Positions 9,951 through 58,304 of a stretch of 64,000 nucleotides of DNA are shown here, one piece after another. Numbering within the stretch: position 1 is the stretch's first letter; every line of letters begins with the position of its first letter. Position numbers and translations under genes: made by a program. Source of the DNA: an uncultured Alphaproteobacteria bacterium (GTDB lineage Bacteria > Pseudomonadota > Alphaproteobacteria > HIMB59 > GCA-002718135); assembly GCA_902530685.1 (NCBI GenBank), contig CACAAZ010000001.1, forward strand, positions 31,090-95,089, read 5' to 3'. Below the pieces are notes generated by a model. It was not told where the DNA came from. It made no database searches and was given only the letters and a program-made list of their open reading frames with translations.

Positions 9951-10927
9951 TACCATTAGAATTATCTGTTGAGAAAATAAATCAAGTATATTTAAAAATA
10001 AAACCTTATATTAATAAAACCCCTTTATTAAAAGTATCTCAAATAACTAATAGTCATTTCTCTACCAATTTATTTCTTAAATATGAATTTTTTCAAAAAT
10101 CTGGATCATTTAAAGCTAGAGGAGCGATTAATAATGTTCTTAGTCAAGAAAAAGAAAAAATTAATAAGGGTATAACTGCAGTAAGTGCTGGTAATCATGC
10201 AATCGCAGCATCATTTGTGGCTAATTTGTTTAATTTAAAAAATAAAATATTTTTATATGAATCAGCAAATGATTACAGAGTTCAAACTTGTAAAAATTAT
10301 GGTGCTAACATTATCTTCACAAATCCAAAACAAGCTTTTATAGATGCTAATAATGCACAAAAAGAAGGGTATTATTTTATCCATCCTTTTGATGGACCCT
10401 ATACATTACAAGGTAGCGCAACTTTAGGTCTTGAAATTTCAGATTATTTTAAAATAAATAACTTAAATTTAGATTATTTGGTTATTTCTGTTGGTGGAGG
10501 TGGATTAATAAGCGGTGTTTCTTCCTATATTAAGCAAATATTTCCTAATACTAAAGTAATTGGAGTTGAGCCAGAAGGTGCACAAGGATTAAGTCAAAGT
10601 TTTAAAAAAAATAAACCTCTACAAAATCTTAACGTCAATAGTATTGCTGATAGTTTATCGGCTCCTCTTCATATGAAATACTCATTTGATATTGCAAAAA
10701 AAGTAGTAGATGAAATAGTTACAGTTACTGATGATCAGATGAGAGAATTTATGATTTTTGCACATAAAAATTTTAAATTAATGCTAGAACCTGCCTGTGT
10801 TGCTGGTTTAGCTGCAATTAAATATAAATTAGAAAATAAACTTAAAAATATGAACACTCTTTTGATTTTATGCGGATCAAGCATTGATTCAAAAAGTTGG
10901 AACTCTTTAATAAATTATAATGGATAA
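9947..10927 (+). CDS. PLP-dependent threonine/serine dehydratase family enzyme
   Basis: SGSFKARGA (PLP lysine), SAGNHA, GGGGLISG motifs. 326 aa with no ACT regulatory domains. Confidence 0.7.
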   Translation: MIPLELSVEKINQVYLKIKPYINKTPLLKVSQITNSHFSTNLFLKYEFFQKSGSFKARGAINNVLSQEKEKINKGITAVSAGNHAIAASFVANLFNLKNKIFLYESANDYRVQTCKNYGANIIFTNPKQAFIDANNAQKEGYYFIHPFDGPYTLQGSATLGLEISDYFKINNLNLDYLVISVGGGGLISGVSSYIKQIFPNTKVIGVEPEGAQGLSQSFKKNKPLQNLNVNSIADSLSAPLHMKYSFDIAKKVVDEIVTVTDDQMREFMIFAHKNFKLMLEPACVAGLAAIKYKLENKLKNMNTLLILCGSSIDSKSWNSLINYNG

Positions 10928-12021
10928 TTTATGACCCCTCCAGAAATTGTTTTTTTTACACCTGTTGTATTCTTATTACTTATAGGAAGTTTTTTGTAAG
11001 ATCTTGCTCCGATATACCCAAACATTTGAGCTTCTACCAAATCACCATTAATATTGAATTCTTCAATATTAAAAATTTTTTTATTTATATTACTTTTTAA
11101 AATTTTAAGTAAAAAATTATTTTTTCTACCTCCTCCAGTAAGTATAATAATATCAAAATTTAATTTAATTTTATTTATTAAATGCTTAAAACCAAGGTAA
11201 GTCATATAGTTTGCTGTTGCCAATGCATCAAATTTATTTAACTTAATTAATTTTCTAAGATAATTATTAAAATAATTCCTATCTAAAGATTTTGGAAATT
11301 TTAATTTAAAAAATTTATCTTTTTTAAATTCATTTATAACAAAATTATTTATTTTACCCAGTTTTGCTAAATTTCCGTTTTTATCAAAATTTATTTTAAA
11401 AAAGTAATTACTTAAATCATCTAACAAGCAATTGGCAGGACCTATGTCAGAAGAAATTATTTTATTTGTTTTGATTGCTGAAAAATTTGCAATTCCTCCT
11501 AAATTAATGATTATAACTTTTTGTTTTATTTTATTTATTAAATATTTGTGATAGTAGCTTCCAATTGGCGCTCCTTCTCCACCTAATTTAATATCCTTGT
11601 CTCTAAAATTACTAATTGTTTTTATTTTTAACTTTTTTGCAATTTCTTTTCCATTACCTAACTGAATTGATAATTTTTCTTTTGGATTATGGTAAACAGT
11701 TTGCCCACTAATTGATATAAAATCAATATTTCTCTTGTTAATTTTATTTTGATTAATAAATTTTTCTAAATATTTTATATAGTTTGCATTAACTTTATGT
11801 TCAATTTTTTCAAAGTACTCTTTTTTTTTAATATTAATTTTTGGTTTATTTATTATTATTTTATTTAAAAAATCTTTATATAATTTCTCAAATTTATAAG
11901 ATTTTTCTTTGATTATCCTTACATAATTCGTACCATTTGTCCTTAGATAACTTATGTCAATTCCATCTATTGATGTACCTGTCATCACCCCAATTATATT
12001 AATTTTCTTTTTTGTACTCAT
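10915..12021 (-). CDS. anmK: Anhydro-N-acetylmuramic acid kinase
   Basis: GVMTGTSIDGIDIS N-terminal motif and ASKHA-type fold motifs. Convergent 13-nt overlap with the upstream gene. Confidence 0.85.
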   Translation of the reverse strand: MSTKKKINIIGVMTGTSIDGIDISYLRTNGTNYVRIIKEKSYKFEKLYKDFLNKIIINKPKINIKKKEYFEKIEHKVNANYIKYLEKFINQNKINKRNIDFISISGQTVYHNPKEKLSIQLGNGKEIAKKLKIKTISNFRDKDIKLGGEGAPIGSYYHKYLINKIKQKVIIINLGGIANFSAIKTNKIISSDIGPANCLLDDLSNYFFKINFDKNGNLAKLGKINNFVINEFKKDKFFKLKFPKSLDRNYFNNYLRKLIKLNKFDALATANYMTYLGFKHLINKIKLNFDIIILTGGGRKNNFLLKILKSNINKKIFNIEEFNINGDLVEAQMFGYIGARSYKKLPISNKNTTGVKKTISGGVINYPL

Positions 12022-12164
12022 TTTTGTAATCTAAAAAATTGAAATGATTTATTTTACACATCTTATTAACAATTGTATTAACAAAATTATAAATTTTATT
12101 TTTTTTTGTATTATTTTCATTTTTTTTTTATTGATAATTTATTTTTTTATTGATAAATTAATTT

Positions 12165-12278
12165 TAATTATCGCACGCAAAGGTGATAAGGAGATAAATA
12201 AGAGGAAACGAAGATTTATCTGAATCGGGAGGAAATGCACGGTTCAAAGAAAAAAGACCTAGCAATAGGTCTTTTTTT
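12165..12278 (+). ncRNA. Candidate small RNA / attenuator unit, copy 1 (unassigned family)
   Basis: A 114-nt unit repeated 218 nt downstream with 3 substitutions. 8-bp hairpin AGATAAAT/ATTTATCT with a 14-nt GGA-containing loop. SD-like AAGGAG and GGGAGGAA. Terminator-like stem AGACCTA/TAGGTCT plus T-run (12255-12278). TTGATA (12131-12136), 17 nt, then TAAATT upstream. Confidence 0.45.
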
Positions 12279-12382
12279 GATTCTAAACCTCATAAACTAT
12301 TAATCCACAAACATACTAACAATTTTTTTTACTAAATCATTTTTTCTATTGATATGTTTTTTTGGAAATAATAAGCTACTAA

Positions 12383-12497
12383 TAATTATTACACGCAAAG
12401 GTAATAAGGAGATAAATAAGAGGAAACGAAGATTTATCTGAATCGGGAGGAAATGCACGGTTCAAAGAAAAAAGACCTAGCAATAGGTCTTTTTTTT
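12383..12497 (+). ncRNA. Candidate small RNA / attenuator unit, copy 2
   Basis: Same unit as 12165-12278. Differs at the positions equivalent to 12172, 12173 and 12185. Has its own TTGATA (12349-12354), 17 nt, then TAAGCT. Terminator-like hairpin plus T-run at 12473-12497. Confidence 0.45.
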
Positions 12498-12554
12498 ATT
12501 TTTGGCCTTTTATTTTAATTGTTAAATCATAAAACTATGTGTAAAATGTAAATA

Positions 12555-12692
12555 ACGGGAGATACTGATTATTTCAGAGCCGAAGGAGCAACGACCCGGA
12601 AACTCTCAGGCAAATGGACCGTTAAAATTAAACTCTGGAAAAGAGCTTTGGCTCTACCGTAGGTGTAAAAACTCTCAGGTAAAAAGACAGAG
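12555..12692 (+). promoter_or_regulatory. Tandem glycine riboswitch (two aptamers) in the gcvT leader
   Basis: Aptamer 1: CGGGAGA...GCCGAAGGAGCAA...CUCUCAGGCAAAUGGACCG. Aptamer 2: CUCUGGAAAAG...ACCGUAGGUGUAAAAACUCUCAGGUAAAAAGACAGAG. Both carry the conserved glycine-riboswitch cores. Sits directly upstream of the gcvT SD/TTG start. Confidence 0.85.
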
Positions 12693-12712
12693 GGGTAACT
12701 TGGAGATATAAT

Positions 12713-13837
12713 TTGAAAGAGTTGCCTTTAGATATTCCTCTAAAAAACTTTCACGAGATCAATGGTGCTAAAATGGTTCCATTTGCAGGTTTTAATATGC
12801 CAATTAATTATAAGACAGGCATAATTAATGAACATAAAAATGTAAGAAATCACTCTGGTATTTTTGATGTAAGTCATATGGGGCAGATGTTACTAGAAGC
12901 TACTGATTTGCATATTAATAATTTAGAAAAATATATTCCATTAAAATTAAAAAATTTAAGAAACAATAGATCAAACTATACATTTTTACTTAATGATAAT
13001 GGTGGTGTAGTGGATGATTTAATTGTTTCTTTAATAGATATAAATAGAAAATCTTTTTTATACATTGTCTACAATGCATCTAGAAAAAATGAAGATGAAA
13101 AAATTTTTTTTAAATGTGCTCCTAACGCTGAAATTTTACACGTCAAAAACTGTTTATTTGCAATTCAAGGTCCAGAATCTATTGAAGTTCTTAATAATGT
13201 AATTGAAATTCCAGTTGATATGCATTTTTTAGATATTGATGTATTAAAGTATAAAAATAATTCTATAATTGTTAGTAGATCTGGTTATACAGGTGAAGAT
13301 GGATTTGAAATTTCTATATCTACAGATCAAGCTGAAATATTCGTAAAAGATTTATTAGAAAATAAAAATACTATGCTTTGCGGTTTAGGATCAAGAGATT
13401 CATTAAGATTAGAAGCTGGATTGAGTTTATATGGTCACGAATTAAATGAAAACATTACACCAATTGAAGCAGGATTATCATGGGCGCTAGATAAAGATCG
13501 CTTAAATGATACTGCACTAAATGGCAATAAAATATTATTAAATCAATTACATAATAAACCTTTAAATAAAAAAATTGGATTAATTTCAGTTAACAGATCA
13601 ATGTTAAGAGATGGAATGATTCTATTTGATCGTAATAAAAATAATATTGGTAAAATTACGAGTGGTTGTTTTAGTCCAAATCTAAATAAATCAATAGGTA
13701 TTGGATATTTAAATTTAAATTTTGATGAAGAAAAAGAAATTTTTTGTGAAATTAGAAATAAAATGGAATTAGTAAAAAAAACTAATCTACCATTTGTTAA
13801 AAAAAATTATAAAAAAAATGGGAGTTATAATGAGTGA
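12713..13837 (+). CDS. gcvT: Glycine cleavage system T protein (aminomethyltransferase)
   Basis: TTG start after SD GGAG. GAKMVPFAGFNMP.NY, FDVSHMG and SRSGYTGEDGFEIS motifs. Confidence 0.9.
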   Translation: MKELPLDIPLKNFHEINGAKMVPFAGFNMPINYKTGIINEHKNVRNHSGIFDVSHMGQMLLEATDLHINNLEKYIPLKLKNLRNNRSNYTFLLNDNGGVVDDLIVSLIDINRKSFLYIVYNASRKNEDEKIFFKCAPNAEILHVKNCLFAIQGPESIEVLNNVIEIPVDMHFLDIDVLKYKNNSIIVSRSGYTGEDGFEISISTDQAEIFVKDLLENKNTMLCGLGSRDSLRLEAGLSLYGHELNENITPIEAGLSWALDKDRLNDTALNGNKILLNQLHNKPLNKKIGLISVNRSMLRDGMILFDRNKNNIGKITSGCFSPNLNKSIGIGYLNLNFDEEKEIFCEIRNKMELVKKTNLPFVKKNYKKNGSYNE

Positions 13838-17095: not shown

Positions 17096-18124
17096 ATGAT
17101 TTATTTTAATCTGATTTTAGTTTTTTTAGTATTAGTTGCAATACATGAGTACGGTCATTATATAGTTGCGAGATTGTTTAAAGCTGAAGTTACGGATTTC
17201 TCAATTGGATTTGGTAAACCACTTTTAAAATTTACAGATAAAAATGGCACTACGTGGAAATTATCTCCAATTCCATTGGGTGGCTATGTAAAAATCAAAG
17301 GTCTTGATAATATATTTTCTCCAAACCCTAACAATGAAAAGGGATCCTTTCAATCCCTTACACTTTTTCAAAAAATATTAGTACTTTTAGCAGGAAGTGT
17401 TTTTAATATTCTTAGTGCTTGGTTTTCTCTTTTCTGCATTTTTTTCTTTTTTGGAATTGTTAGTTTAATGCCGATTATTGGATCAGTTAGCGAAAATTCA
17501 TCGGCATTTGAAAATGATCTTAGAGAAGGAGATAAAATACTCGAAATAAATAATATAAGTATTAAAGAATTTTCTGATATCCCAAAAGCAATTGCAAATA
17601 ACCAAAGTATAAATATCTTAATAAAAAGAAATACTCAGATAATTGAAAAAAATTTTGATCTAAAATTTAATGAAGAATTAAATAGGTACATTATCGGAAT
17701 ATCTTCACCTCAAAATCCTATTATTGATAAGTATAATTTAATTGATTCAATTAAGAACTCATCTTTATTTATACCTACATATTATGCTGCTTCTTTTTCA
17801 TTTCTTCAGCAATCTTATAAAGAAAATACATTAGGAGATCAGTTAGCTGGACCAATAGGGATAGTTAAAAATGCAGATCAAATGATGCTAGATCAGATTA
17901 GAGGAGTTCTATTTTTATTTATTGTTATATCTTTGTTTGTAGGATTATTTAATTTGCTTCCTATTCCTCTTTTAGATGGTGGTCACATAATGTATTTTAT
18001 TATTAGAAGAATTTTTTCAAACTCTCTTCCTGAGTATATTACAAGAGTTTATTTGGCTGTGGGGATAACAATAATATCTTTTCTTTTTATAGTTGTGACT
18101 TACAACGATATTTTTTATAAATAA
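17096..18124 (+). CDS. rseP: RseP-type site-2 zinc metalloprotease (M50)
   Basis: HEYGHY zinc motif, central PDZ-like segment, NLLPIPLLDGGH motif. Confidence 0.85.
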   Translation: MIYFNLILVFLVLVAIHEYGHYIVARLFKAEVTDFSIGFGKPLLKFTDKNGTTWKLSPIPLGGYVKIKGLDNIFSPNPNNEKGSFQSLTLFQKILVLLAGSVFNILSAWFSLFCIFFFFGIVSLMPIIGSVSENSSAFENDLREGDKILEINNISIKEFSDIPKAIANNQSINILIKRNTQIIEKNFDLKFNEELNRYIIGISSPQNPIIDKYNLIDSIKNSSLFIPTYYAASFSFLQQSYKENTLGDQLAGPIGIVKNADQMMLDQIRGVLFLFIVISLFVGLFNLLPIPLLDGGHIMYFIIRRIFSNSLPEYITRVYLAVGITIISFLFIVVTYNDIFYK

Positions 18125-18142
18125 ATATTATTGGGAGATAAA

Positions 18143-18511
18143 ATGACAAATTTTGAAAAAGTAAAAGAATTTATGACAACTTTTGGTCAAGAAGTTAAAA
18201 ATAATCCAGAATTTCCAAATGATAAAATTGTAGAATTAAGAAAAAAGCTTATTGACGAAGAGTTTAACGAATTAAAAGATGCTATAAGTGATAATGATAT
18301 TGTTGAAGTAGCTGACGCACTAACCGATATATTAGTTGTTACTTATGGAGCTGGTGCTGCTTTTGGTATAGATTTAGATAAATGTTTTGAAGAGGTGCAC
18401 CGCAGCAATATGAGTAAATTATCTGAGGAAGGTAAACCCATTTATAATGAATTTGGAAAGGTAATGAAGGGCCCTAACTATTCACCTCCAGATTTAAAAA
18501 AAATTATCTAA
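18143..18511 (+). CDS. MazG-like nucleotide pyrophosphohydrolase (small all-alpha NTP-PPase)
   Basis: Start moved to the ATG at 18143 after SD GGGAGA. E..EL..A......E.AD...D pattern (EEFNELKDA...VEVADALTDIL) typical of the MazG/HisE superfamily. Confidence 0.65.
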   Translation: MTNFEKVKEFMTTFGQEVKNNPEFPNDKIVELRKKLIDEEFNELKDAISDNDIVEVADALTDILVVTYGAGAAFGIDLDKCFEEVHRSNMSKLSEEGKPIYNEFGKVMKGPNYSPPDLKKII

Positions 18512-57368: not shown

Positions 57369-58304
57369 TCATGTTCTAAGTGTTGTTTTAGCAACGACTA
57401 AAGATTTCTTTCTATTCTCTCTAAAAACTATGTAAATACCACTTACAACAATAAGAATGATACCCATAAAGGAATAGAAATCTGGTAGTTCATTAAAAAT
57501 TAAAAATCCTAAAATTACTGCAAAAATTAAATGAACATATTCTGCAGGGGCATTTATTAATGGAGACCCTATTCTATAAGCTGCTATTAAAGATATAATG
57601 CCTAAACTTCCTAAAACTCCAATGAATAAAATAAAGATAACGGTTTGAATGTCATTAAGGATCCAAGGATTATTTAAATTATCAAGAATATTAAAATTTA
57701 TATCTGAGTGATATATCAAAGCACTTATTACAGTTCCTCCAATAAATGAACCTATATAAATATGAAAAGTTTGTTGAAATAATGAATCTTTATCAGAAGT
57801 CTTTTTAGCTAATGTCATGGATAGAGCATAACTGCACGCTGTAATAATAGGAAATGTCATATAGATATTTAAATTTGTAAAATCAGGTTTAATAATTAAT
57901 AGTGTTCCAGAAAAACCCACTATAATACTGAAAATTCTATTTATACCAATTTCATTTTTTAAAATAAAATAAGAAAATATTGTAATAAAAAAAGGACTGA
58001 CAAAAAATAAGCTCGTTGCTTCAGCAAGACCAATTTTACTTAATGAAATAAAAAAAAATAAAAAACCAAAAAAGAATGATACACCTCTAAAGATAGCAAC
58101 ATACGGATATGAAGAACTAAAGACAATCTTCTGTTTTGTATAAAGTAAATAAAAAATTAAAATTAAAGATCCTACTATTGCTCTAAAAGCTAATATTTGA
58201 AGTAATGACAGATCATTAACTGTTAACTTGATTAAAGTATCATGAACAATAAAAAATAACATTCCAAATATAATAAGTAATAATCCTTTAATATTGTTAT
58301 TCAT
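57369..58304 (-). CDS. EamA/DMT-family transporter
   Basis: 10 TM segments. Core-like AT-rich composition. Confidence 0.8.
   Translation of the reverse strand: MNNNIKGLLLIIFGMLFFIVHDTLIKLTVNDLSLLQILAFRAIVGSLILIFYLLYTKQKIVFSSSYPYVAIFRGVSFFFGFLFFFISLSKIGLAEATSLFFVSPFFITIFSYFILKNEIGINRIFSIIVGFSGTLLIIKPDFTNLNIYMTFPIITACSYALSMTLAKKTSDKDSLFQQTFHIYIGSFIGGTVISALIYHSDINFNILDNLNNPWILNDIQTVIFILFIGVLGSLGIISLIAAYRIGSPLINAPAEYVHLIFAVILGFLIFNELPDFYSFMGIILIVVSGIYIVFRENRKKSLVVAKTTLRT

Follow-up and report, generated by a model that had tools for sequence, protein, structure and literature searches.

Tandem genes of the small RNA IMES-4 upstream of the glycine-cleavage operon in an uncultured HIMB59-lineage alphaproteobacterium

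Two IMES-4 genes upstream of gcvT

The stretch of DNA analysed here (the window) comprises 64,000 nucleotides of contig CACAAZ010000001.1 from an uncultured alphaproteobacterium of the HIMB59 lineage. Between anmK (reverse strand, 10915-12021) and gcvT (12713-13837) lies an intergenic gap of 691 nt (12022-12712), occupied by two near-identical RNA units and, about 56 nt past the T-run that closes the second unit, by the aptamers of a tandem glycine riboswitch. The two units are almost certainly tandem genes of IMES-4, the RNA family RF02037 of Rfam. Copy A (12167-12246) matches the family model with 73.8 bits and copy B (12385-12464) with 77.8 bits against a gathering threshold of 48, both over positions 1-80 of the 80-position model. 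At the gathering threshold, the Rfam scan of the whole window returned four matches: the two IMES-4 copies, the glycine riboswitch and a tRNA. A model of our own (R1) scores 93.2 bits for copy A and 97.2 bits for copy B, and finds no others in the window. IMES-4 is a stand-alone small RNA (sRNA) of about 113 nt in uncultivated marine Pelagibacterales-like (SAR11) and HIMB59-like alphaproteobacteria. The RNA family is already catalogued, and the units of the window are a real feature but no new kind of RNA. To our knowledge, IMES-4 is an orphan RNA, reported as abundant in ocean metatranscriptomes, with no assigned function, host or host locus and not found in cultured organisms. The original descriptions of the motif, reportedly based on marine metagenomes and metatranscriptomes, are those of Weinberg et al. 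(Nature 462:656) and Shi et al. (Nature 459:266) in 2009.

The units form part of a 161-nt direct repeat (12122-12282 and 12340-12500) with a spacing of 218 nt and 89% identity, promoters included; a direct repeat so long and so well matched cannot have arisen by chance. In pairwise alignment the unit bodies (about 12166-12278 and about 12384-12497) are the same except at positions 12172, 12173 and 12185, and the flanks of the two units are far less alike than the bodies. All elements of both units lie on the forward strand. The promoter of copy A (12122-12159) consists of a T-rich upstream tract, a -35 box TTGATA (12131-12136), a 17-nt spacer and a -10 box TAAATT (12154-12159); that of copy B (12340-12377) has the T-tract, TTGATA (12349-12354), a 17-nt spacer and TAAGCT (12372-12377). 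The core is folded into three helices, P1, P2 and P3, located at 12167-12190, 12192-12221 and 12222-12245 in copy A and at 12385-12408, 12410-12439 and 12440-12463 in copy B. The intrinsic terminator of copy A (12249-12278) contains an A-tract, the stem AGACCTA-GCAA-TAGGTCT (12255-12272) and 7 T, and forms a 13-bp hairpin in the predicted fold; that of copy B (12467-12498, placed at 12466-12497 by the terminator scan and also present in the fold) carries the same stem at 12473-12490, followed by 8 T.

A first-pass annotation of the window, made from the letters alone, had described two near-identical units with a period of 218 nt, three differences and diverged flanks, the TTGATA-17-TAAATT and TTGATA-17-TAAGCT promoter boxes, the terminator stems and a gap of roughly 690 nt, and had offered paired sRNA genes as one possible role. 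Repeat search, alignment and promoter scan confirm this description, and the units are indeed two self-contained promoter-to-terminator RNA genes. Other parts of the annotation need revision. The hairpin it placed in the unit body, with the stem AGATAAAT/ATTTATCT, exists as the lower part of P2, but P1 and P3 had been overlooked. Two of its three GGA-like motifs are conserved in the family, but the third, AAGGAG, which lies where P1 meets P2, occurs only in the subtype found in the window. The annotation also matched the units to no RNA family and named beforehand a clear Rfam match to a known family as grounds for refutation; RF02037 is such a match.

Conserved structure of the RNA

Relatives were gathered with an exact pattern built on two conserved loops (CACGCAAAGG, N30-55, CGGGAGGAAATG). 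Among bacterial and archaeal contigs representing one genome per species, the pattern has 79 matches, 74 of which are in marine alphaproteobacterial single-amplified genomes (SAGs) and metagenome-assembled genomes (MAGs) labelled as Pelagibacterales, Pelagibacteraceae, HIMB59, MarineAlpha5 or uncultured Alphaproteobacteria. The remaining five (loci L005, L027, L061, L069 and L076) are chance matches in GC-rich non-marine MAGs, have no IMES-4 structure and were discarded. Together with at least 120 metagenome contigs bearing the pattern, the real loci number at least 194. All of the relatives are of marine origin, whether SAG, MAG or metagenome contig; there are no cultured isolates among the 74 genome matches, and the exact pattern finds no IMES-4 in the viral contigs of IMG/VR.

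In both copies of the window, P1 carries the loop ACGCAAAG, P2 is a long stem with a G-GAAA-C apex and P3 carries the loop GGAGGAAAUGCA; P3 is followed by a purine-rich linker and then by an intrinsic terminator of 13-14 bp. The three differences between the copies affect two adjacent base pairs of P1 and preserve the pairing, changing U-A to C-G and A-U to G-U. The minimum free energy (MFE) structure coincides with the centroid structure, and both show the four hairpins, in the two window copies and in two relatives, with z-scores between -6.4 and -7.2 (-6.4 for copy A and -7.2 for copy B). No competing fold or antiterminator is predicted in these four sequences, and by inspection we found no complementarity between the aptamer-like part of the RNA and the strands of the terminator.

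Covariation was assessed in 45 distinct sequences, including both window copies, against 500 column shuffles and slid controls. The four helices (P1, P2, P3 and the terminator) are 94% paired, and 25 of the 36 base pairs show double changes; none of the 500 shuffles reaches the observed pairing and covariation, and the slid controls are far below it as well. Pairing amounts to 98% in P1, 90% in P2 and 98% in P3, with double changes in 19 of the 27 core pairs, and the terminator helix covaries across the family. The promoter, of the sigma-70 type and strong in appearance, is likewise a constant part of the unit. In 142 distinct upstream regions its elements occupy fixed positions: a T-tract (-44 to -39), the boxes TTGAT (-36 to -32) and TAaaTT (-13 to -8) with a 17-nt spacer between them, and A at -1. 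This arrangement points to a transcription start at the base before P1, predicted as the A at about 12166 in copy A and the A at about 12384 in copy B.

The most conserved bases are concentrated in the three loops, one of which is a GNRA tetraloop. The loops CACGCAAAGG, GGAAAC and CGGGAGGAAAUGcACG are unchanged in both copies of the window, and the P1 and P3 loops stand 42 +/- 1 nt apart in all listed loci. At positions that the search pattern leaves free, GGAAAC at the P2 apex is present in 79 of 81 distinct cores, as is CACG, which closes the P3 loop on its 3' side (79/81). Support for loop conservation that is independent of the search is given by the upper-case positions of the Rfam consensus and by the unforced GGAAAC, CACG and terminator apex.

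The window copies cover the full RF02037 model, sharing its three hairpins and conserved loop sequences, but they have the lowest Rfam scores in the set, the relatives scoring 83-103 bits. They differ from the family in the sequence of P2, which contains a 4x4 purine internal loop, in an altered P3 stem and in the apex of the terminator, which is GCAA in the window and CUUG in the family. We refer to this divergent subtype as W-type. The RF02037 model ends before the linker and the terminator, both of which are conserved parts of the unit.

The terminator apex deserves a separate description. The form UAG-CUUG-CUG(A) hardly varies from clade to clade, including those with a covarying lower stem (loci L006, L085 and L129, for example), and the form UA-GCAA-UA is seen only in W-type sequences: both window copies, the first copy of locus L071 and locus L124 (both described below). 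We considered whether the P1 loop might kiss the terminator apex (GCAA/UUGC) and dropped the idea, as the W-type apex GCAA has the same sense. The use of the apex TTGCTG as a -35 box for a downstream deaminase gene was rejected on account of inconsistent spacing to a -10 box and of the equal conservation of the apex where no deaminase follows. Finally, IMES-4 and the glycine aptamer have short purine motifs in common, yet no covariance-model match links them even at E <= 1, and homology between the two was dismissed.

Genomic context of IMES-4

The listed loci, 194 in number, share a single neighbourhood: PALP, anmK(-), at times eamA(+), IMES-4(+), at times sbp(-), a deaminase gene(+), the glycine riboswitch and gcvTH. 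Representative loci were checked against Rfam, and a covariance model of our own, covering core and terminator, finds one IMES-4 per listed locus, the exception being L071 (SAG AG-893-I03) with two. One or two genes, the deaminase and at times sbp, separate IMES-4 from the riboswitch in nearly all listed loci. The deaminase has 190-193 amino acids and an FCY1-like CDA fold (PF00383), with no NCBIfam match. Its nearest structures are the yeast-type cytosine deaminase, a 'nucleoside deaminase' and GuaD, and the JGI automatic annotation labels it TadA. The homologues listed for it are all closely related (at least 60% identity) and belong to these very loci. Most loci in which the deaminase start codon is close also contain a CAAATC/TAAATC motif 4-10 nt past the T-run of IMES-4 (e.g. 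L006, 3411-3455, and L048, 7267-7281).

The gene sbp, which encodes a periplasmic substrate-binding protein (PBP_like_2, 266 amino acids), is convergent to IMES-4 and stands between it and the deaminase in about 25 listed loci: L044, L051, L077 and about 22 metagenome contigs (e.g. L083, 4490-5221). At these loci the A-tract/U-tract hairpin of IMES-4 faces the two genes alike, and transcription may be terminated there from either direction; weak matches of the model on the reverse strand, present at every IMES-4 terminator, are consistent with this.

The corresponding region of the cultured strain HTCC1062 ('Ca. P. ubique') is simpler. Its intergenic region 649763-649953 lies between a membrane protein gene(+) and gcvT and is a 191-nt spacer containing the glycine riboswitch only, so that IMES-4 and the deaminase are both missing there (PMC2704228, Table 1).

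Losses also occur among the listed loci. In the lineage of the window the deaminase is gone from the slot and IMES-4 is duplicated. Metagenome contig L124 (CEOK01010714.1, 2173-2390), with about 76% identity to the window, carries anmK and a single IMES-4 of W-type, followed directly by homologues of the window open reading frames (ORFs) at 17096-18124 (an RseP-like protease) and 18131-18511. The deaminase, the glycine riboswitch and gcvTHP are all absent from this locus, and IMES-4 is kept.

Two further observations concern the surroundings of IMES-4. In HIMB59-like and many other loci the transporter gene eamA immediately precedes IMES-4; its homologue in the window is located at 57369-58304 on the reverse strand, about 45 kb from IMES-4, which places it outside the local block in this lineage. 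A 1052-nt metagenome contig (L187) has an inverted second IMES-4 upstream of the normal one (about 290-370 and 773-837); on so short a contig, the inverted copy most likely reflects a chimeric or palindromic assembly.

The glycine riboswitch that follows copy B (12542-12694, forward strand) matches RF00504 with 64.2 bits in its first aptamer and RF03166, the model of the glycine-GGAnGA variant, with 88.6 bits, the latter under its threshold of 110. It has a predicted promoter of its own outside the IMES-4 units, TTGTTA-17-TAAAAT (12519-12547, forward strand; promoter scan), from which the leader of gcvTHP would be transcribed. Other lineages have a TTG..-17-TATA.A box at the same distance before the GGGAGA of the riboswitch, directly past the stop codon of the deaminase. 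Glycine-riboswitch transcripts of SAR11 start at or just before the P1 helix (PMC5069720), and the conserved riboswitch promoter fits these published starts.

Duplication and probable gene conversion

The tandem arrangement of IMES-4 appears in the window and in one other of the 194 listed loci. This is L071, the nearest species representative to the window (93% identity in GcvT). Like the window, it lacks the deaminase, and its two copies are spaced by 218 nt. A pattern specific to the tandem, which matches both the window and L071, has no match in the metagenome collection, and together with the single copies found elsewhere this indicates that the tandem state is rare.

The intergenic regions of the window and L071 are about 95% identical throughout, with the exception of the block 12408-12491 on the forward strand, which covers P2, P3, the linker and the terminator of copy B. 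Within this block the second copy of L071 has the canonical P2, P3 and terminator of the family, and copy B of the window is identical to copy A. In the two genomes the second copies have orthologous promoters and P1 helices, and the three differences between copies A and B fall just outside the tract, in P1. The near-identity of the unit bodies, which the promoters and flanks do not share, would be explained by a gene conversion of about 85 nt.

The simplest reading of these alignments is a history of three steps. An older duplication would have replaced the deaminase gene. The upstream copy would then have diverged to the W-type, acquiring a new P2 with the 4x4 purine internal loop, compensated changes in P3 and the GCAA apex. 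Finally, a conversion tract of about 85 nt would have written the W-type body over the second copy in the window genome. The W-type also exists as a single copy, on contig L124. The two copies in the window probably just raise the dosage of the RNA. As far as we can tell, two things are new for IMES-4: the divergent subtype, and the tandem arrangement, which is rare and bears a clear footprint of gene conversion.

Discussion

On balance, we regard IMES-4 as probably an autonomous, trans-acting structured RNA, the copies of which have been homogenised in the window by gene conversion. Rfam, too, types IMES-4 as 'Gene' and not as 'Cis-reg'. In our reading, IMES-4 is not a leader of gcvTHP. The first-pass annotation had proposed, as an alternative to sRNA genes, that the units act in series with the glycine riboswitch as attenuators, so that gcvTHP would respond to several inputs. 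This proposal does not hold: the units and the riboswitch have promoters of their own, a deaminase gene and at times also sbp intervene in almost all relatives, contig L124 retains IMES-4 without gcvTHP, and no antiterminator is predicted. The riboswitch promoter, the persistence of IMES-4 where gcvTHP is absent and the convergent gene placed before the deaminase all point instead to an autonomous sRNA gene.

Several observations weigh against our interpretation. The start, stop, abundance and read-through of the RNA are deduced from sequence. The start codon of the deaminase is found 12-59 nt past the T-run of IMES-4 in 131 of the 166 loci listed, a gap with little or no room for a separate promoter, as would be expected of a 5' leader or attenuator. 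The convergent sbp gene intervenes in 22. The invariance of the 22 loop nucleotides is partly circular, the loci having been gathered by an exact pattern on them. All loci belong to one clade with conserved synteny, and their counts are not independent events; as parts of one syntenic block, they may owe the adjacency of IMES-4 and the deaminase to inheritance only. Finally, the 64-kb window, the part of the genome covered by our search, contains no hfq, csrA or proQ, and no protein partner was identified.

The proximity of the deaminase lends some weight to the alternative that IMES-4 is mainly a cis-acting 5' leader, a riboswitch-like or protein-dependent attenuator whose terminator gates read-through into the downstream gene. 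The FCY1-like deaminase would be the ancestral target, replaced in the window by the next IMES-4 unit and then possibly by the glycine riboswitch and gcvTHP, and the terminated leader would account for the abundant short RNA. In the loci listed, IMES-4 always has the orientation of the downstream deaminase/gcv block, and in at least 12 distinct sequences the deaminase starts after a gap of just 12-16 nt. Nucleobase deaminase genes are typical targets of riboswitches, and the succession of conserved loops, covarying stems and an immediately following terminator is the usual riboswitch layout. The joint absence of IMES-4 and the deaminase from the HTCC1062 locus would also fit a leader and its target. 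Like the terminator-type riboswitch leaders, such as the adjacent glycine riboswitch and the purine riboswitches that precede genes of nucleobase metabolism, IMES-4 has a conserved structured domain with an intrinsic terminator behind it, and in most genomes it is found just upstream of the deaminase gene.

These riboswitches, however, alternate between mutually exclusive terminator and antiterminator folds, and no alternative pairing is predicted for IMES-4, whose MFE and centroid structures coincide in four different sequences. Its terminator is long (13-14 bp followed by 7-10 U) and looks constitutive, and the separate promoters of the units and of the riboswitch are equally at odds with a leader. 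Unlike riboswitch leaders, IMES-4 is conserved where no co-oriented gene follows. The structure is maintained equally well before the convergent sbp, where 23 distinct cores are 95.0% paired with compensatory changes in 14 of 27 pairs, and next to the deaminase, where 58 distinct cores are 96.7% paired with compensatory changes in 14 of 27 pairs. It is also kept in the absence of the deaminase (the window and L071) or of both the deaminase and gcvTHP (L124); IMES-4 thus persists without the deaminase at three loci and is duplicated at two of them, the window and L071. We therefore consider it unlikely that IMES-4 is mainly a cis-acting leader of the deaminase. We infer that IMES-4 acts on its own and in trans, and that it is not obligatorily a leader of the deaminase. 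With so short a gap, expression of the deaminase would depend on read-through or on a promoter that overlaps the terminator, and read-through into it may be a secondary feature of IMES-4.

The two roles could also be combined. IMES-4 might be, or might have begun as, a nucleobase-sensing or protein-gated attenuator that allows the deaminase to be expressed by read-through, and its abundant terminated product would have gained a trans role, or had one from the outset. We give this idea a rather small chance. If true, the dual function would explain, by its trans role, the survival and duplication of IMES-4 where the deaminase has been lost, and the orphan ocean RNA would represent a new riboswitch class tied to nucleobase nitrogen salvage in SAR11-type cells.

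As to the mode of action of an autonomous IMES-4, we propose a structured RNA that would bind a protein or a small ligand through its loops, rather than one acting by antisense pairing. The fixed spacing, the covarying stems, the conserved bases in three loops and the lack of complementary sites make a three-dimensional fold that presents the loops the most likely arrangement. Sites complementary to the conserved loops were not found beyond chance expectation in the 64-kb window and about 1.1 Mb of related loci, where the search returned only the IMES-4 antisense. The candidate contact sites would be the P3 loop, which resembles a Shine-Dalgarno (SD) sequence with an AUG, and the GGA-containing loops of P2 and P3.

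The same GGA motifs (GGAAAC in P2 and GGGAGGAAAUG in P3) might instead titrate a GGA-binding translational repressor or the 30S subunit, making IMES-4 a CsrA/RsmE-type sponge or an SD mimic, as the first-pass annotation had suggested. Two loop GGA motifs some 25 nt apart are conserved family-wide, GGGAGG could pair with the anti-SD by sequence reasoning, and an sRNA with its own terminator, duplicated in the window, would fit a dosage role. The sponges CsrB, RsmY and RsmZ are, like IMES-4, stand-alone, terminator-ended and highly structured, with GGA in hairpin loops. Known Csr/Rsm sponges, however, carry many GGA sites, typically five or more, whereas IMES-4 has only two that are conserved in the family. 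With the AAGGAG motif being lineage-specific, so that only two of the three motifs are conserved across the family, the idea is weakened; the P1 loop is equally conserved and has no GGA, and no csrA lies within the window. A sponge or SD mimic appears improbable.

Base pairing of the Hfq-dependent type, with one conserved loop serving as the seed for mRNAs elsewhere in the genome, would be in keeping with the long U-tail of the terminator after a purine/A-rich linker and with the conserved single-stranded segments. Pairing sRNAs commonly occur as tandem paralogues. PrrF1/PrrF2 of Pseudomonas and OmrA/OmrB of enterobacteria resemble the window in being adjacent same-strand sRNA genes with their own promoters and terminators, the copies of which are kept similar by duplication or conversion. 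These are Hfq-dependent pairing sRNAs with known regulons, whereas no targets of IMES-4 appear in the sequences searched for complementary sites. The distribution of conserved bases over three loops at a fixed distance of 42 +/- 1 nt is also more typical of a three-dimensional fold than of a linear seed. We consider a pairing sRNA of this type quite improbable.

The least credible alternatives, a non-functional duplication or relic and a small peptide translated from the AUG of the P3 loop, can be set aside: promoters, helices and terminators are intact in both copies; and although an AUG follows GGAGG, a 21-22-codon ORF can be read through the terminator and ORFs of 52 and 59 amino acids overlap the units, the GGAGG-to-AUG spacing is 2 nt, 1-nt linker indels between close relatives break the frame, no stop codon would close the ORF within the terminated RNA, Pfam matches none of the overlapping ORFs and the variation follows RNA pairing and not codons. 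The short SD-AUG spacing and the frame-breaking indels rule out the AUG as a real coding start.

For annotation, these results mean that the long gap upstream of gcvT holds two copies of a known sRNA gene and a glycine riboswitch, and no new multi-input leader. For IMES-4 itself they add predicted gene boundaries, namely a promoter, a start site and a terminator; a host group of Pelagibacterales-like and HIMB59-like marine alphaproteobacteria; and one fixed chromosomal slot beside a nucleobase deaminase and the glycine-cleavage operon. As far as we can tell, the boundaries, the host group and the single conserved slot are new for this family. They are useful clues and do not settle its function. 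The natural 'experiments' found at these loci, in which the deaminase or gcvTHP was lost, a convergent gene was inserted, or IMES-4 was duplicated in tandem and converted, indicate that the RNA is selected in its own right.

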